NCBI RefSeq assembly: GCF_013167455.1
Contig: NZ_CP038330.1
Strand: one strand, 5' to 3'
DNA: 64,000 bases
Source of the DNA: Escherichia coli O157:H7
GTDB taxonomy: Bacteria; Pseudomonadota; Gammaproteobacteria; Enterobacterales; Enterobacteriaceae
In this document: one piece after another, positions 10,179 to 58,939 of the stretch
Position numbering within the stretch: the first letter of the stretch is position 1
How the letters are laid out: every line of letters begins with the position of its first letter
Translations under genes and position numbers: made by a program
The notes under the pieces: generated by a model
Databases searched by the model: none
The model's input: only the letters and a program-made list of their open reading frames with translations
What the model was told of the DNA's origin: nothing

Positions 10179-10194
10179 CTTTCACATGTGAAAG
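10179..10194. promoter_or_regulatory. 16-bp palindrome CTTTCACATGTGAAAG (copy 1 of 5)
   Basis: Perfect palindrome in the divergent intergenic region; identical copies at 13594, 44203 (core), 50310, 58351. Confidence 0.6.
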
Positions 10195-17431: not shown

Positions 17432-18082
17432 TCAATCGTCACCCTTTCTCGGTCCTTCAACGTTCCTGACAACGAGCCTCCTTTTCGCCAATCCATCGAC
17501 AATCACCGCGAGTCCCTGCTCGAACGCTGCGTCCGGACCGGCTTCGTCGAAGGCGTCTATCGCGGCCCGCAACAGCGGCGAGAGCGGAGCCTGTTCAACG
17601 GTGCCGCCGCGCTCGCCGGCATCGCTGTCGCCGGCCTGCTCCTCAAGCACGGCCCCAACAGTGAAGTAGCTGATTGTCATCAGCGCATTGACGGCGTCCC
17701 CGGCCGAAAAACCCGCCTCGCAGAGGAAGCGAAGCTGCGCGTCGGCCGTTTCCATCTGCGGTGCGCCCGGTCGCGTGCCGGCATGGATGCGCGCGCCATC
17801 GCGGTAGGCGAGCAGCGCCTGCCTGAAGCTGCGGGCATTCCCGATCAGAAATGAGCGCCAGTCGTCGTCGGCTCTCGGCACCGAATGCGTATGATTCTCC
17901 GCCAGCATGGCTTCGGCCAGTGCGTCGAGCAGCGCCCGCTTGTTCCTGAAGTGCCAGTAAAGCGCCGGCTGCTGAACCCCCAACCGTTCCGCCAGTTTGC
18001 GTGTCGTCAGACCGTCTACGCCGACCTCGTTCAACAGGTCCAGGGCGGCACGGATCACTGTATTCGGCTGCAACTTTGTCAT
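17432..18082 (-). CDS. tetR: tetracycline repressor TetR(A)
   Basis: 216 aa from MTKLQPNTVIRAALDLLNEVGVDGLTTRKLAERLGV; ORF track over-extends the N-terminus. Confidence 0.95.
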   Translation of the reverse strand: MTKLQPNTVIRAALDLLNEVGVDGLTTRKLAERLGVQQPALYWHFRNKRALLDALAEAMLAENHTHSVPRADDDWRSFLIGNARSFRQALLAYRDGARIHAGTRPGAPQMETADAQLRFLCEAGFSAGDAVNALMTISYFTVGAVLEEQAGDSDAGERGGTVEQAPLSPLLRAAIDAFDEAGPDAAFEQGLAVIVDGLAKRRLVVRNVEGPRKGDD

Positions 18083-18084
18083 GC

Positions 18085-18140
18085 TTGACACTTTATCACT
18101 GATAAACATAATATGTCCACCAACTTATCAGTGATAAAGA
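18085..18140. promoter_or_regulatory. tet operator/promoter region
   Basis: Two palindromic operators (TTTATCACTGATAAACA and CTTATCAGTGATAAAGA) between divergent tetR and tet(A). Confidence 0.7.
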
Positions 18141-18187
18141 ATCCGCGCGTTCAATCGGACCAGCGGAGGCTGGTCCGGAGGCCAGAC

Positions 18188-19387
18188 GTGAAACCCAACA
18201 GACCCCTGATCGTAATTCTGAGCACTGTCGCGCTCGACGCTGTCGGCATCGGCCTGATTATGCCGGTGCTGCCGGGCCTCCTGCGCGATCTGGTTCACTC
18301 GAACGACGTCACCGCCCACTATGGCATTCTGCTGGCGCTGTATGCGTTGATGCAATTTGCCTGCGCACCTGTGCTGGGCGCGCTGTCGGATCGTTTCGGG
18401 CGGCGGCCGGTCTTGCTCGTCTCGCTGGCCGGCGCTGCTGTCGACTACGCCATCATGGCGACGGCGCCTTTCCTTTGGGTTCTCTATATCGGGCGGATCG
18501 TGGCCGGCATCACCGGGGCGACTGGGGCGGTAGCCGGCGCTTATATTGCCGATATCACTGATGGCGATGAGCGCGCGCGGCACTTCGGCTTCATGAGCGC
18601 CTGTTTCGGGTTCGGGATGGTCGCGGGACCTGTGCTCGGTGGGCTGATGGGCGGTTTCTCCCCCCACGCTCCGTTCTTCGCCGCGGCAGCCTTGAACGGC
18701 CTCAATTTCCTGACGGGCTGTTTCCTTTTGCCGGAGTCGCACAAAGGCGAACGCCGGCCGTTACGCCGGGAGGCTCTCAACCCGCTCGCTTCGTTCCGGT
18801 GGGCCCGGGGCATGACCGTCGTCGCCGCCCTGATGGCGGTCTTCTTCATCATGCAACTTGTCGGACAGGTGCCGGCCGCGCTTTGGGTCATTTTCGGCGA
18901 GGATCGCTTTCACTGGGACGCGACCACGATCGGCATTTCGCTTGCCGCATTTGGCATTCTGCATTCACTCGCCCAGGCAATGATCACCGGCCCTGTAGCC
19001 GCCCGGCTCGGCGAAAGGCGGGCACTCATGCTCGGAATGATTGCCGACGGCACAGGCTACATCCTGCTTGCCTTCGCGACACGGGGATGGATGGCGTTCC
19101 CGATCATGGTCCTGCTTGCTTCGGGTGGCATCGGAATGCCGGCGCTGCAAGCAATGTTGTCCAGGCAGGTGGATGAGGAACGTCAGGGGCAGCTGCAAGG
19201 CTCACTGGCGGCGCTCACCAGCCTGACCTCGATCGTCGGACCCCTCCTCTTCACGGCGATCTATGCGGCTTCTATAACAACGTGGAACGGGTGGGCATGG
19301 ATTGCAGGCGCTGCCCTCTACTTGCTCTGCCTGCCGGCGCTGCGTCGCGGGCTTTGGAGAAATTCTTCAAATTCCCGTTGCACATAG
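18188..19387 (+). CDS. tet(A): tetracycline efflux MFS transporter TetA(A), last ~9 codons replaced by ISCR2-derived sequence
   Basis: GTG start (VKPNRPLIVILSTVALDAVGIG...); 12-TM MFS; C-terminus ...RRGLWRNSSNSRCT diverges from the remembered native ...GLWSGAGQRADR at ~19355, where the ISCR2 5'-end sequence begins. Confidence 0.9.
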   Translation: MKPNRPLIVILSTVALDAVGIGLIMPVLPGLLRDLVHSNDVTAHYGILLALYALMQFACAPVLGALSDRFGRRPVLLVSLAGAAVDYAIMATAPFLWVLYIGRIVAGITGATGAVAGAYIADITDGDERARHFGFMSACFGFGMVAGPVLGGLMGGFSPHAPFFAAAALNGLNFLTGCFLLPESHKGERRPLRREALNPLASFRWARGMTVVAALMAVFFIMQLVGQVPAALWVIFGEDRFHWDATTIGISLAAFGILHSLAQAMITGPVAARLGERRALMLGMIADGTGYILLAFATRGWMAFPIMVLLASGGIGMPALQAMLSRQVDEERQGQLQGSLAALTSLTSIVGPLLFTAIYAASITTWNGWAWIAGAALYLLCLPALRRGLWRNSSNSRCT

Positions 19388-25574: not shown

Positions 25575-26394
25575 GGCACTGTTGCAAAGTTAGCGATGAG
25601 GCAGCCTTTTGTCTTATTCAAAGGCCTTACATTTCAAAAACTCTGCTTACCAGGCGCATTTCGCCCAGGGGATCACCATAATAAAATGCTGAGGCCTGGC
25701 CTTTGCGTAGTGCACGCATCACCTCAATACCTTTGATGGTGGCGTAAGCCGTCTTCATGGATTTAAATCCCAGCGTGGCGCCGATTATCCGTTTCAGTTT
25801 GCCATGATCGCATTCAATCACGTTGTTCCGGTACTTAATCTGTCGGTGTTCAACGTCAGACGGGCACCGGCCTTCGCGTTTGAGCAGAGCAAGCGCGCGA
25901 CCATAGGCGGGCGCTTTATCCGTGTTGATGAATCGCGGGATCTGCCACTTCTTCACGTTGTTGAGGATTTTACCCAGAAACCGGTATGCAGCTTTGCTGT
26001 TACGACGGGAGGAGAGATAAAAATCGACAGTGCGGCCCCGGCTGTCGACGGCCCGGTACAGATACGCCCAGCGGCCATTGACCTTCACGTAGGTTTCATC
26101 CATGTGCCACGGGCAAAGATCGGAAGGGTTACGCCAGTACCAGCGCAGCCGTTTTTCCATTTCAGGCGCATAACGCTGAACCCAGCGGTAAATCGTGGAG
26201 TGATCGACATTCACTCCGCGTTCAGCCAGCATCTCCTGCAGCTCACGGTAACTGATGCCGTATTTGCAGTACCAGCGTACGGCCCACAGAATGATGTCAC
26301 GCTGAAAATGCCGGCCTTTGAATGGGTTCATGTGCAGCTCCATCAGCAAAAGGGGATGATAAGTTTATCACCACCGACTATTTGCAACAGTGCC
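25575..26394 (-). mobile_element. IS26, complete 820-bp copy
   Basis: 14-bp terminal IRs GGCACTGTTGCAAA at 25575-25588 and (reverse complement) 26381-26394; intact tnp26. Confidence 0.95.
25627..26331 (-). CDS. tnp26: IS26 transposase Tnp26 (wild-type Gly184)
   Basis: 234 aa MNPFKGRHFQRDIILWAVRWY...; contains RIIGATLGF. Confidence 0.95.
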   Translation of the reverse strand: MNPFKGRHFQRDIILWAVRWYCKYGISYRELQEMLAERGVNVDHSTIYRWVQRYAPEMEKRLRWYWRNPSDLCPWHMDETYVKVNGRWAYLYRAVDSRGRTVDFYLSSRRNSKAAYRFLGKILNNVKKWQIPRFINTDKAPAYGRALALLKREGRCPSDVEHRQIKYRNNVIECDHGKLKRIIGATLGFKSMKTAYATIKGIEVMRALRKGQASAFYYGDPLGEMRLVSRVFEM

Positions 26395-27098
26395 TACATT
26401 TCAAAAACTCTGCTTACCAGGCGCATTTCGCCCAGGGGATCACCATAATAAAATGCTGAGGCCTGGCCTTTGCGTAGTGCACGCATCACCTCAATACCTT
26501 TGATGGTGGCGTAAGCCGTCTTCATGGATTTAAATCCCAGCGTGGCGTTGATTATCCGTTTCAGTTTGCCATGATCGCATTCAATCACGTTGTTCCGGTA
26601 CTTAATCTGTCGGTGTTCAACGTCAGACGGGCACCGGCCTTCGCGTTTGAGCAGAGCAAGCGCGCGACCATAGGCGGGCGCTTTATCCGTGTTGATGAAT
26701 CGTGGGATCTGCCACTTCTTCACGTTGTTGAGGATTTTACCCAGAAACCGGTATGCAGCTTTGCTGTTACGACGGGAGGAGAGATAAAAATCGACAGTGC
26801 GGCCCCGGCTGTCGACGGCCCGGTACAGATACGCCCAGCGGCCATTGACCTTCACGTAGGTTTCATCCATGTGCCACGGGCAAAGATCGGAAGGGTTACG
26901 CCAGTACCAGCGCAGCCGTTTTTCCATTTCAGGCGCATAACGCTGAACCCAGCGGTAAATCGTGGAGTGATCGACATTCACTCCGCGTTCAGCCAGCATC
27001 TCCTGCAGCTCACGGTAACTGATGCCGTATTTGCAGTACCAGCGTACGGCCCACAGAATGATGTCACGCTGAAAATGCCGGCCTTTGAATGGGTTCAT
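26394..27098 (-). CDS. tnp26: IS26 transposase, G184N variant
   Basis: Same as Tnp26 except RIINATLGF (GGC->AAC); stop codon recreated as TAG at the junction. Confidence 0.9.
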   Translation of the reverse strand: MNPFKGRHFQRDIILWAVRWYCKYGISYRELQEMLAERGVNVDHSTIYRWVQRYAPEMEKRLRWYWRNPSDLCPWHMDETYVKVNGRWAYLYRAVDSRGRTVDFYLSSRRNSKAAYRFLGKILNNVKKWQIPRFINTDKAPAYGRALALLKREGRCPSDVEHRQIKYRNNVIECDHGKLKRIINATLGFKSMKTAYATIKGIEVMRALRKGQASAFYYGDPLGEMRLVSRVFEM

Positions 27099-27161
27099 GT
27101 GCAGCTCCATCAGCAAAAGGGGATGATAAGTTTATCACCACCGACTATTTGCAACAGTGCC
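26395..27161 (-). mobile_element. IS26 truncated tandem copy 2 (767 bp; lacks the 53-bp tnp-distal end including one IR)
   Basis: Begins at the tnp stop codon directly abutting the IRL of copy 1; ends with TTTGCAACAGTGCC. Confidence 0.85.
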
Positions 27162-27865
27162 TACATTTCAAAAACTCTGCTTACCAGGCGCATTTCGCCC
27201 AGGGGATCACCATAATAAAATGCTGAGGCCTGGCCTTTGCGTAGTGCACGCATCACCTCAATACCTTTGATGGTGGCGTAAGCCGTCTTCATGGATTTAA
27301 ATCCCAGCGTGGCGTTGATTATCCGTTTCAGTTTGCCATGATCGCATTCAATCACGTTGTTCCGGTACTTAATCTGTCGGTGTTCAACGTCAGACGGGCA
27401 CCGGCCTTCGCGTTTGAGCAGAGCAAGCGCGCGACCATAGGCGGGCGCTTTATCCGTGTTGATGAATCGTGGGATCTGCCACTTCTTCACGTTGTTGAGG
27501 ATTTTACCCAGAAACCGGTATGCAGCTTTGCTGTTACGACGGGAGGAGAGATAAAAATCGACAGTGCGGCCCCGGCTGTCGACGGCCCGGTACAGATACG
27601 CCCAGCGGCCATTGACCTTCACGTAGGTTTCATCCATGTGCCACGGGCAAAGATCGGAAGGGTTACGCCAGTACCAGCGCAGCCGTTTTTCCATTTCAGG
27701 CGCATAACGCTGAACCCAGCGGTAAATCGTGGAGTGATCGACATTCACTCCGCGTTCAGCCAGCATCTCCTGCAGCTCACGGTAACTGATGCCGTATTTG
27801 CAGTACCAGCGTACGGCCCACAGAATGATGTCACGCTGAAAATGCCGGCCTTTGAATGGGTTCAT
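27161..27865 (-). CDS. tnp26: IS26 transposase, G184N variant
   Basis: Identical to the copy-2 transposase. Confidence 0.9.
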   Translation of the reverse strand: MNPFKGRHFQRDIILWAVRWYCKYGISYRELQEMLAERGVNVDHSTIYRWVQRYAPEMEKRLRWYWRNPSDLCPWHMDETYVKVNGRWAYLYRAVDSRGRTVDFYLSSRRNSKAAYRFLGKILNNVKKWQIPRFINTDKAPAYGRALALLKREGRCPSDVEHRQIKYRNNVIECDHGKLKRIINATLGFKSMKTAYATIKGIEVMRALRKGQASAFYYGDPLGEMRLVSRVFEM

Positions 27866-27928
27866 GTGCAGCTCCATCAGCAAAAGGGGATGATAAGTTT
27901 ATCACCACCGACTATTTGCAACAGTGCC
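27162..27928 (-). mobile_element. IS26 truncated tandem copy 3 (767 bp)
   Basis: Identical unit to copy 2; terminal IR TTTGCAACAGTGCC ends at 27928. Confidence 0.85.
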
Positions 27929-34954: not shown

Positions 34955-34981
34955 AGAGTAACTGCGACAATGAACGTAAAG

Positions 34982-35009
34982 GCCAGCAATAGCTGGCCTT
35001 TTTTTATAC
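34982..35009 (+). terminator. rho-independent terminator
   Basis: AAAGGCCAGCAATAGCTGGCCTTTTTTT. Confidence 0.7.
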
Positions 35010-35025
35010 TTGCAGTTTGAGGTGT

Positions 35026-35059
35026 TACATGTCACGATAAGGTAAGTGTGACATGTAAC
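35026..35059. promoter_or_regulatory. inverted repeat TTACATGTCAC-N12-GTGACATGTAA, probable operator
   Basis: 11-bp perfect arms overlapping the start of the RHH-like gene at 35048. Confidence 0.45.
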
Positions 35060-35449
35060 GGAAAAGGTGATTTTTTGAAAGTATCCAATGAAGATGCTCA
35101 GGCTACGGCGATCTATCTCCTCAGAGCTGCTTCGCGCCCAGCTTTCTGGCGTGACGTCCCATTCGATAAGAAACTTGAAGCCGTGGACAGCCTGAACAGC
35201 ATAGGGCGATCACCATCAGAACTCACTGAATGGATTAATAAATACCTGACAGCAGAGCAAATCAATAAACTCGGGACATCAATTAGGCAACGTCGCAGAA
35301 GGGGATATGGTGTTGGTAAAAGCATAACTATAAGCGATAAAGCCCACAGGATTTTGAAGCGGTTGTCAGAAGTCGATGGTTGCAGTTTGTCAGAAGTGAT
35401 CGAGAAACGCCTAGCCCGAGCTTATAAAAATACATGGGACCATAAATAG
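35048..35449 (+). CDS. ribbon-helix-helix-like DNA-binding protein (start uncertain)
   Basis: C-terminal KSITISDKAHRILKRLSEVDGCSLSEVIEKRL resembles CopG/Arc RHH; GTG start lies inside the palindrome. Confidence 0.45.
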   Translation: MTCNGKGDFLKVSNEDAQATAIYLLRAASRPAFWRDVPFDKKLEAVDSLNSIGRSPSELTEWINKYLTAEQINKLGTSIRQRRRRGYGVGKSITISDKAHRILKRLSEVDGCSLSEVIEKRLARAYKNTWDHK

Positions 35450-35562
35450 AGTGACACTAGGGGTTGCATTTTTAAAACCCGTGATAGCATCTAAATGAAC
35501 CCAAACGAATAGGGGGGCTGGCGGCGATGCCGACCATTATCCCGACAATGGAGAAATAGACC

Positions 35563-36288
35563 ATGATGACATTGACTACCGTCTCGAAGAAAACTTCAAA
35601 TAATTCAGCCCTTGTATTCTGGCGCGTTGGTACAAAACGGAAAGGCATCCTTGATGTCCATATTGATTTTGACCACGAAGAAGCGGATCTTTTGGCTGAG
35701 CTCGTAGCCATTCGCTATCTGGCGCTGGACAAACAGGTTTTTTGCAGAGAGCCAGGTGCTGGTGCTGGTTACAAGCTGGTGGTATCCAAAGGTGCAATCA
35801 AGAAGCTGGCGCTGGGCAAATCCACCAAGGCTTTTGCTTTCAAGTTTGCGGCTTGCCTCACTGGGCGTTTAAAGGGCGCTACTATTGAAGTCTCGCAGAG
35901 CATGGAGTTTATGGATGAGCCGGGAGAGGGCAACATTGAGCTCCTCGATGTGGACAAGCAAGCCTATACCCAGACCCATGACGAAATATCTACACCTGCC
36001 ATTGGCCCCGTCCTGGTTACTCAACATGCCATCGATCAGTATCAGGCCCGGATAACCTCTGGAGACCCTAAAAAACCGTGGGCCTCACTTGTTGGCCGCC
36101 TCCAGCATCCAGAGTTACAGGTTCAGCCCTTTGACGAGAAAGTGGCTCGCCATAAAGCCAGAAAGTATGGCCGCGTAGATAACGTGGAAGTCTGGGGCCA
36201 TAGAGATTCCAAGTTCAAGTACCTGATGGTGATCAACGACGACAACCAAAAACGTGTTCTTGTCACAGTGTTTGAGCGAAATGAGTAA
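35563..36288 (+). CDS. hypothetical protein (241 aa)
   Basis: ORF with reasonable spacing; no motif recognised. Confidence 0.5.
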   Translation: MMTLTTVSKKTSNNSALVFWRVGTKRKGILDVHIDFDHEEADLLAELVAIRYLALDKQVFCREPGAGAGYKLVVSKGAIKKLALGKSTKAFAFKFAACLTGRLKGATIEVSQSMEFMDEPGEGNIELLDVDKQAYTQTHDEISTPAIGPVLVTQHAIDQYQARITSGDPKKPWASLVGRLQHPELQVQPFDEKVARHKARKYGRVDNVEVWGHRDSKFKYLMVINDDNQKRVLVTVFERNE

Positions 36289-42433: not shown

Positions 42434-42485
42434 AATTACCGTATTACCGTATTACCGTATTACCGTAATTATGATAATTACGGTA
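42434..42485. repeat. 4x ATTACCGT tandem repeat plus 15-bp palindrome TAATTATGATAATTA
   Basis: In the divergent intergenic region; the same palindrome recurs at 47386-47400. Confidence 0.6.
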
Positions 42486-42601
42486 AATAAATTTAAGTTC
42501 TTCTTGCTGTTGTTCTACTTATTAAAATGTATCTTTGAAAAAGTAGAGTTTTTGGAATAGGATAGGTGGTGCTGAATGCCCACTTTTTACAAGGAGCGCG
42601 A

Positions 42602-46422: not shown

Positions 46423-47298
46423 ATGGCTAAAAACTTCATATCAGAACAATTCTCGGCCATGTGCCGCGACTTAACGAACCTGTCCTCTCTTATCAAACGA
46501 CTACCGCCACGGTACGCAAAAGTTGCGGCCATCCCTCCTACCGGAAAAGGAATGGAGAACGAGCCCGTCAACAAGATTGTCGTAACTGAACAAACTGGGC
46601 GCGAAGCTCTTGAGCTGGCAGCGCACAGCTACAGAGATCTTCACATCAACCCAGACTATTCGCAGAAGTCTGCCAGGCGCACCGTGGGGGTACTCTGGTT
46701 CTCCCCTTCCAGGATTGGTGTAGCTGACGAAATTGCGGCGACGGTTGAACGCATCAACGCGGCCAAAGCTGGTATCGAGGAGTTCATTATCTCGACGTAC
46801 CCCACCAGGCAAGAGAGGTTTGAAGCACTTCGAGCGGACTGCCCTGGTGTCATGACTCTCCACCTTTACAGACAAATTCGGTGCTATACCAATGGCGACA
46901 TCGACTCTATCCGCTTCACCTGGCAACGGAAGGACTCCTTGAAGAAGCCCGTAAAAGAGGAGCTTTTGCAACGCATCAGAGAGGAGCTGGAGCGATCTGG
47001 GCCAGACTATCAACTTCCCCTGGAGCAGCTTATCCAGAAGATCGCCAGCACCCCGGAGCCTTATCTCCGGGAGCGAAGGGAAGTAAAGGTTCAACCGGTG
47101 GCAAACGTCATGGCCGCAGGGGTACTCAAAACCGTTACCGCGCCAATGCCCCTGATCGTGCTCCAGGATAAGGATGTTCAGCTCAAATTGCTTCGTAACT
47201 TTGACGCCTCAGAACAACGCAAAACTCGATCTGATAAAGCGGCATCGGAAATCCTTGGCACCTTCGGTGGAGTCACTATCGAATCCTTCCCTGGATGA
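46423..47298 (+). CDS. hypothetical protein (291 aa)
   Basis: ORF with AGGCGG RBS; no motif recognised. Confidence 0.5.
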   Translation: MAKNFISEQFSAMCRDLTNLSSLIKRLPPRYAKVAAIPPTGKGMENEPVNKIVVTEQTGREALELAAHSYRDLHINPDYSQKSARRTVGVLWFSPSRIGVADEIAATVERINAAKAGIEEFIISTYPTRQERFEALRADCPGVMTLHLYRQIRCYTNGDIDSIRFTWQRKDSLKKPVKEELLQRIREELERSGPDYQLPLEQLIQKIASTPEPYLRERREVKVQPVANVMAAGVLKTVTAPMPLIVLQDKDVQLKLLRNFDASEQRKTRSDKAASEILGTFGGVTIESFPG

Positions 47299-58369: not shown

Positions 58370-58939
58370 GCCCTTACGGAACAAGGCGTTTATTGACAAA
58401 GCATTACATAGTTGAACATGTCAAACAAATCGCATACACTATGGAATAGGCCATTGCTAACGCTTTGGTCCCCATCTGCAACACCGCAGAGTTCTCTTTC
58501 TCAAATATCTCTTTCTGTAAACACCATCATCCTTGTGTGGTCGGGATGCGCCTTTGCCTTCCCTGCCCTCCTCAGCTCCTGCTGTATTCGCAATTTCAGC
58601 CCTCGCTGTATCCCTAAAATCACTTATACCTAAACGCTATTTAATATCACAAAATACCGCACTCCCCGTGCGCTATTTCCGCCATTCTTTTGGCGCACTT
58701 TCCATTACTATCGCAAAAATATCCGTATCCCATTGATTACTAAAAGTATTGTAACTTTGTTCCGTCGGTACAAAGTTAAGTGTATGTTTTTAAAGGTTTT
58801 TTATTGTTGACAGCATCATTATTTGGGCTTGTAAAGGCGCAAAATGTGTCAGTTTGTGACAATAGAAGAACTCTAAAAGCGTTCATCGAATAACGCACTT
58901 TTTGTATGGCTAACAACGCAGTTTAAAGGGTGGCAAACA

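Follow-up and report, generated by a model that had tools for sequence, protein, structure and literature searches.

Paired inverted sites at a short MatP-like gene of IncC plasmids: a candidate operator with copies on chromosomal islands

An inverted repeat that stands in front of two genes annotated only as 'hypothetical protein' raises the question of which protein recognises it and to what effect. The DNA that was analysed (a stretch of 64 kb, hereafter the window) is the backbone of an IncC (IncA/C2) conjugative resistance plasmid, in which the locus is flanked on one side by IS4321, where the mer/resistance island ends, and on the other by the rhs gene. It consists of the repeat, a gene encoding a 124-aa protein and a gene encoding a 241-aa protein; it is 100% identical in many records and is present in at least 736 plasmids with at least 80% coverage among the best-scoring 5000 records. 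IncC plasmids rank among the main vehicles of multidrug resistance; their regulatory circuits (AcaCD, AcaB, Acr1/2 and ParB-parS) have attracted close study because they are exploited by islands such as SGI1. A literature search found no description of the 124-aa gene, of its family's operator or of the orphan operator copies discussed below, and a candidate regulator with a MatP fold and a defined predicted operator is new for a locus carried by hundreds of sequenced plasmids.

The repeat and the gene that follows it

In a sequence-only reading of the window, the element had been described as a perfect 11-bp inverted repeat starting at position 35026 and overlapping the start codon of a gene whose product ends in a ribbon-helix-helix (RHH)-like fold. 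The repeat is present and its 11-bp arms are real, at 35025-35035 and 35048-35058, the start having been off by one base. The symmetry extends to a perfect 12/12 bp, with a left 12-mer GTTACATGTCAC at 35024-35035 and a right 12-mer GTGACATGTAAC at 35048-35059, neither of them stranded, separated by a 12-bp gap. Each arm alone is near-palindromic, of the form GTNAC-AT-GTNAC, and the base 3' of the right arm is an invariant G (28/28 exact-operator instances). The spacer at 35036-35047 measures 12 bp here and 11 bp in relatives and varies freely except for its first three bases. Perfect 12-bp inverted repeats with a gap of at most 40 bp have a chance expectation of 0.19 per 64-kb window, and at least one is found in 14% of shuffles, which makes the repeat by itself only mildly unusual. 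Since these window statistics are weak, the case for the repeat rests on the comparison with other loci; judged by those comparative data, a chance origin is untenable.

The overlap with the start codon was not confirmed, as the GTG at 35048 is simply the first possible start of the longest open reading frame. The RefSeq/PGAP start is the TTG at 35075, the starts of all homologues align at this position, and the Shewanella orthologue has an in-frame stop directly 5' of its start (the stop-to-stop ORF begins at L005 5998); the repeat thus ends 15 bp upstream of the start codon. Between the two, a Shine-Dalgarno-like AAGGTG can be read from the sequence at 35064-35069 (+), 5 nt before the TTG. 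On the other side, an intrinsic terminator-like hairpin with a T-run (34978-35008, +; 10-pair stem with 6 G-C pairs, T tail) closes the upstream operon, which comprises a toprim gene and small ORFs. This hairpin is kept in all A/C-type loci and forms the upstream boundary of the regulator's promoter region, giving the order terminator, about 15 bp, operator, 4 bp, AAGGTG, 5 bp, TTG.

The gene (35075-35449, +; WP_000868820) encodes an N-terminal MatP-type helical bundle followed by a C-terminal RHH domain, so that the RHH-like C-terminus proposed earlier is borne out and is specifically MatP-like. MatP is the organiser of the chromosome terminus. The Pfam profile MatP_N (PF06303) scores 30 bits against a cut-off of 27, MatP chains in the PDB match residues 38-118 with E = 1.7e-4, and E. 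coli MatP aligns with 27% identity over the full length of the 124-aa protein, the middle part of the E. coli MatP sequence used being confirmed by the PDB match. Compared with the MatP-matS system of E. coli and its relatives (PDB 3vea, 4d8j), the differences are as clear as the likeness. The NCBIfam MatP equivalog NF003471 scores 33 bits, so far under its cut-off of 165 that the protein is not a MatP orthologue. The C-terminal coiled coil, which in MatP mediates tetramerisation (PMC6907758), is absent, the 124-aa protein ending at residue 124, where the C-terminal tail of MatP starts in the alignment. The gene is, moreover, carried on a mobile element. By its sequence, the product is a distant MatP homologue, MatP-like without the coiled-coil tail.

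Close homologues are few (13 clusters), while a profile search reaches 212 cluster representatives, mostly of 120-150 aa, and the MatP architecture is found to be widespread on mobile elements as a short, probably autoregulated DNA-binding protein, which bears on the evolution of MatP and matS. Among solved structures, neither protein of the locus matches anything other than MatP, and neither has a match in PADLOC or PHROGs. One metagenomic family member (P0182, 546 aa) has what by eye appears to be a PIF1/RecD-type helicase fused to a C-terminal MatP-like bundle-plus-RHH module, and this module thus also serves as a DNA-targeting domain. Identity with AcaB, the activator of IncC conjugation, was considered because this is likewise a small RHH-type regulator of the same plasmid family. 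AcaB is RHH-like, is encoded near traN and activates Pacr1 (PMC8373056), whereas the proposed target of the 124-aa protein is its own promoter; the position of acaB near traN and the fact that MatP is the sole solved structure matched rule this identity out.

The paired sites as a predicted operator

Every regulator lineage with obtainable upstream DNA was compared, and every one has a pair of inverted sites, spaced by 23-24 bp from start to start and ending 6-37 bp before the start codon. In seven lineages, with protein identities of about 38-63%, 15-37 bp separate the paired sites from the start codon downstream of them, and the loci contain no sites elsewhere, save a few single unpaired ones in L024; in an eighth, more distant lineage (P0098, about 32% identity), paired 13-mers end 6 bp before the start. 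The IncC loci of types 1 and 2, pT413A, the Shewanella plasmids and L009 have the sites GTTACATGTCAC / GTGACATGTAAC, while P0013 (50% identity, in a non-plasmid context) has GTCACATGTGAC twice, P0092 has GTCACCTGTCAC / GTGACAGGTAAC, P0093 has GTAACCTGTTAC / GTAACAGGTTAC, P0097 has GTGACCTGTCAC / GTAACAGGTCAC and P0098 has GTTAC-CTT-GTAAT / ATTAC-GAG-GTAAT. Spacers and flanks are unrelated between distant lineages, and among the three IncC lineages none of the 24 arm columns varies as against 6 of the 12 spacer columns. Where the central dinucleotide changes from AT to CT/AG, it does so in both arms together, and the overall two-fold symmetry is kept. Among the loci reached via the two gene families, the operator pair is present exactly where the MatP-like ORF is present. 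In a complete 160-kb IncC plasmid the 12-mer is found only at this locus, with 0.05 occurrences expected, and a 128-kb IncA plasmid without the regulator gene has no operator site.

Repeated sites at the gene's own promoter, conserved together with the gene in eight lineages, are what RHH autorepressors of the superfamily of Arc, Mnt, CopG, omega, ParG and MetJ display, and the shared fold and site arrangement would be consistent with binding as a dimer of dimers. The 124-aa protein differs from these in having a MatP-type bundle of about 77 residues before the RHH domain, and its subsites differ in being 12-bp near-palindromes with matS-like half-sites. We consider it likely that the repeat is the cognate operator of the MatP-like protein encoded directly downstream, with RHH dimers on the two inverted sites, negative autoregulation and a portable cassette on which the protein would also act in trans. 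From the comparison we infer binding in which RHH-mediated dimers would each occupy one 12-bp GTNAC-N2-GTNAC site, two dimers on the inverted sites, with starts 24 bp apart, making up a two-fold-symmetric assembly. That the symmetry of the whole element is kept even with internally asymmetric 12-mers suggests such a symmetric dimer of dimers.

The sign of the regulation depends on where transcription would start. A candidate TG-extended -10 element, TGTCACGAT, is made up of the 3' end of the left arm and the first three spacer bases (35030-35038, +), and 17 bp upstream of it a candidate -35 hexamer TTGCAG can be read from the sequence (35010-35015, +), the equivalent position in IncC-type loci being occupied by TTGCAG, TTGAAG or TTGCGG. 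Facing the gene, TGTCAC[G/A]NT, with A at hexamer position 2 and T at position 6, occurs in 28/28 exact-operator instances, compared with only about 13/28 in the opposite orientation (a manual count from the printed spacer ends). Between the upstream terminator and the Shine-Dalgarno sequence there is no space for a promoter elsewhere, so that it should lie within the roughly 70 bp occupied by the operator. With the -10 element inside the left site, the start of the transcript would be covered by the right site, and occupied sites would block RNA polymerase and so produce negative autoregulation; the whole module could be seen as a portable promoter-operator cassette. The autoregulated RHH repressor of the sequence-only reading therefore survives in its RHH fold and in its paired, conserved, predicted sites at the own promoter, without the overlap with the start codon.

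Against negative autoregulation it must be said that a consensus promoter scan calls no sigma-70 promoter at the site and does not call the candidate -35 either, which is weak; given this negative scan, the promoter proposal rests on comparison. In addition, RHH proteins can also activate, as AcaB of IncC does (PMC8373056). The repeat could also fold, the predicted structure being a 14-bp stem of -20.2 kcal/mol (z = -3.05), and might on this account act as a nucleic-acid hairpin, either as an RNA stem-loop in the 5'-UTR or as a single-stranded DNA structure in conjugative transfer. The joint change of the centre in both arms would suit such a hairpin, as would the position of the repeat 3' of primase-type genes in two contexts. 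However, the arm sequence itself is conserved beyond what pairing requires, the GTNAC...GTNAC periodicity inside each arm is not needed for a stem, and in L023 and L026 a stem would contain C-A mismatches. If the -10 element does lie in the left arm, this arm is not transcribed, which likewise argues against a hairpin. Rfam has no family at gathering score, its sole match being Alpha_RBS with 20.9 bits against 38 on the opposite strand, and we hold a hairpin function to be very improbable.

A few deviating loci are worth recording. Upstream of the main operator of the P0093 locus, by about 160 bp, a second, degenerate 12-mer pair GTAACCTGTCGC / GTAACAGGTTAC (L024 2787-2822) may be an auxiliary site. 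In a Xenorhabdus nematophila plasmid (NZ_LN681228.1, L002 at about 4058), ISXne1 interrupts the right arm two bases short of its end (GTGACATGTA|gg); what is left is a truncated operator, with the regulator gene lost. The slot of the IncC MatP-like gene contains, in the IncA plasmid NZ_CP069519.1 (L004 3138-3737), an unrelated 199-aa ORF matching the candidate defence family PDC-M14B (E = 2e-10) and phrog_16834 (E = 6e-50), and in an Edwardsiella plasmid (L003) it is empty and AT-rich.

The half-sites resemble matS, the 13-bp site GTGACRNYGTCAC of MatP (PMC6907758). The sites of the family studied here are 12-mers with a 2-bp centre, and only the distant P0098 has 13-mers, with a 3-bp centre as in matS. 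This likeness, the MatP-homologous protein and a Tus homologue on the same plasmid would fit a role of the repeat in positioning or segregating the plasmid, as a matS-like organiser or partition site to which host MatP or the plasmid protein binds. What is found, however, is a single 12-mer pair on the plasmid, at the gene's own promoter, as opposed to the 23 sites of MatP dispersed over its macrodomain, and there is no canonical matS in the window or on the whole plasmid. The 2-bp centre and the lack of MatP's coiled coil speak against such a role as well, the multi-site centromere of the plasmid is a separate ParB-parS set (PMC10954446), and IncA plasmids lack both gene and site. An organiser or partition site is, in our view, hardly credible.

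Thirteen plasmid copies of TCACATGTGA were examined as a matS-like set for the 124-aa protein and rejected, as they are the published parS sites bound by ParB. Binding of ParB to the IncC parS sites, which have the core TTTCACATGTGAAA with AAAC/GTTT flanks, was verified by EMSA (PMC10954446). The operator itself is not a parS site, since its arms have only the central ACATGT in common with parS and the 13 parS sites lie elsewhere, five of them in the window (core TCACATGTGA at 10182, 13597, 44205, 50313 and 58354). An IncA plasmid without the regulator keeps 14 copies of the parS site, and these sites are thus not targets of the 124-aa protein. The parS copy at 58347-58370 is a 24-bp perfect palindrome, and the 10-bp parS core is identical to the core of the P0013 operator in L010. 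The Tus homologue (46423-47298, +; Pfam Ter, 158 bits) is encoded about 10 kb from the MatP-like gene, so that IncC carries relatives of both chromosome-terminus proteins; in IncA, the Tus homologue is present and the MatP-like gene absent.

The 241-aa gene and the question of a toxin-antitoxin pair

The downstream gene (35563-36288, +) appears to encode an RNase H-like N-terminal domain, in which the DEDD residues are not conserved, and a RelE/BECR-like C-terminal domain; the protein has no match in Pfam or the PDB, and a nuclease-like activity is possible. Its family is much wider than that of the regulator (78 clusters). An earlier suggestion that it could be the partner of the RHH gene leads to the proposal of a type II toxin-antitoxin module, in which the RHH protein would be the autoregulating antitoxin and the 241-aa protein the toxin. 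The arrangement does recall type II systems with RHH antitoxins (RelB, ParD, CopG-type, VapB) in that an RHH gene lies upstream, the operator is located at the promoter and the downstream protein has a C-terminal half that may adopt a RelE/ParE/colicin-D-like fold. Moreover, the RHH domain gives weak matches to VapB and RelB antitoxin profiles, and the gene pair is seen again in L024 with 47% identity.

Nevertheless, the two genes are not conserved as a pair. The 241-aa gene occurs without the regulator in six contexts (IncA, Edwardsiella, Aeromonas, two Vibrio contexts and an Oceanimonas island) and the regulator without the 241-aa gene in three (L010, L023 and L026). The paired cases all have the toprim backbone in common, so that common ancestry explains the pairing. 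Nor do the genes form a tight operon with a single promoter, as they are separated by 113 bp and the 241-aa gene is preceded by its own conserved promoter-like element (35464-35490, +; TTGCAT, 15 nt, TG-extended TAGCAT), the TTGCAT of which is invariant in 8/8 loci upstream of 241-aa homologues, including three that lack the MatP-like gene. The domain order is reversed as well, the RHH domain being C-terminal without a tail able to bind a toxin, and PADLOC, as stated, recognises neither protein. A toxin-antitoxin module is accordingly a most improbable reading, and the 241-aa gene is not an obligate partner of the regulator.

No terminator-like site is called on the + strand of the 113-bp gap, so that read-through is likely, and the 241-aa gene, which the regulator's promoter would probably also feed, may be transcribed in this way. 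In IncC, IncA, Shewanella and Aeromonas loci alike, the leader of the 241-aa gene (35491-35562, about 70 nt) is conserved; it contains a potentially pairing GGCGGCGATGCCGACC segment and may be a regulatory RNA structure.

Operator copies on chromosomal islands and further features of the plasmid

Dereplicated collections were scanned for the exact operator, that is, for exact IncC-type arms with a gap of 11 or 12 bp. The scan returned 10 genomic and 16 metagenomic loci, with about 0.002 expected by chance in the genome collection, and no match among viral contigs. The MatP-like and 241-aa genes adjoin only 4 of the 26 copies; around the other 22, no MatP-like ORF is present in the DNA stretch read. 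All but one of these orphan copies can be assigned to three recurrent contexts, and the remaining one, at a contig end (L065), probably belongs to the first of them. In this first context (10 loci), the operator precedes by about 190 bp a three-gene operon (p128, p386, p119), of which the A/C plasmids carry no relatives. In E. coli EC50 the operon is part of an island of about 28 kb between yicC and dinD, at about 94.4-122.7 kb of NZ_CP056073.1, the sole island read completely, which encodes an integrase, a MobF relaxase and a coupling protein and contains neither a T4SS nor a MatP-like gene. In the second context (6 loci), the operator follows alpA by 45 bp, on islands with a DUF927 primase, MobI (PF19456), RhuM and HerA-SIR2; MobI-encoding islands are known to be mobilised by IncC plasmids (PMC7449626, PMC8409611, PMC5397120). 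The third context (5 loci) has the operator flanked by a DUF927 primase gene and by a 53-aa ORF, the start of which lies about 46 bp downstream. NCBIfam and PADLOC return nothing meaningful for the island genes. Across the islands the neighbouring proteins diverge to 45-77% identity and the spacers vary, whereas both operator arms are exact. Beside one orphan operator, a 52-bp segment (L047 982-1033) matches many Aeromonas, Salmonella and Enterobacter plasmids of about 7.6-9.6 kb with about 88% identity, as well as E. coli genes annotated as 'SprT-like domain-containing protein'.

Most simply, these copies can be read as a portable cassette whose binder would act on the islands in trans; since identical copies occur on islands without the regulator gene in the DNA read, the plasmid protein probably acts there. 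The same copies can be turned against autoregulation by the MatP-like protein, since 22 of the 26 have no MatP-like gene near them in the DNA read, which makes another binder conceivable, and since the island sites are not placed where a classic repressor would sit, being either about 46 to about 190 bp ahead of the next gene or immediately 3' of alpA. A different trans-acting factor, encoded by host, plasmid or island, might bind the site, the MatP-like gene being but one member of its regulon, and the unrelatedness of the three island contexts and the fully read island without a MatP-like ORF would fit such a factor. The site variants, however, with AT or CT/AG centres and as 12- or 13-mers, track the MatP-like orthologues through eight lineages in unrelated settings, which a common host factor would not produce. 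The half-sites are similar to matS, and the contexts share no other conserved candidate gene beside the sites. For these reasons a different factor appears unlikely.

If the MatP-like protein is the binder, a broader picture can be drawn, which we offer tentatively and regard as rather doubtful at present: the protein may be an unrecognised trans-acting regulator in the network between A/C plasmids and chromosomal islands, its cassette may have been acquired by at least three kinds of island (the yicC type with a MobF relaxase, the AlpA-DUF927-MobI type with defence cargo, and the DUF927-orf53 type), and the short MatP-like proteins may be a family of mobile-element transcription factors. A close parallel is offered by the AcaCD boxes and parS mimics of SGI1 and related islands; as with these, the predicted site of an A/C-plasmid protein is found here on islands, including MobI-type ones, without its gene in the DNA read. 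Both regulator and site differ, and cross-talk is proposed by analogy. Operator copies on islands without the regulator point to an unexplored layer of plasmid-island interaction. Should the proposal hold, island genes would be switched off or on when the plasmid arrives, helper and island would have a third channel of cross-talk beside AcaCD boxes and parS mimicry, and the family of 212 cluster representatives would consist of mobile-element transcription factors akin to MatP, the chromosome organiser.

Three further features of the window were noted. A perfect palindrome at 42460-42486, with 13-bp arms TTACCGTAATTAT / ATAATTACGGTAA and a 1-nt centre, lies between divergent hypothetical genes and looks like another candidate operator. 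At 25627-27883, an IS6/IS26-family DDE transposase domain (PF13610) is encoded by each of three consecutive ORFs, which are spaced by 767 bp, less than the 820 bp of a full IS26, and which may form an unusual tandem or overlapping array. Finally, a perfect inverted repeat with 15-bp arms at 18091-18139 lies where the ORFs 17432-18109 (-) and 18113-19387 (+) diverge; they probably correspond to the tetR(A)-tet(A) pair in the annotation of pUMNK88, and the repeat is presumably the tet operator region.
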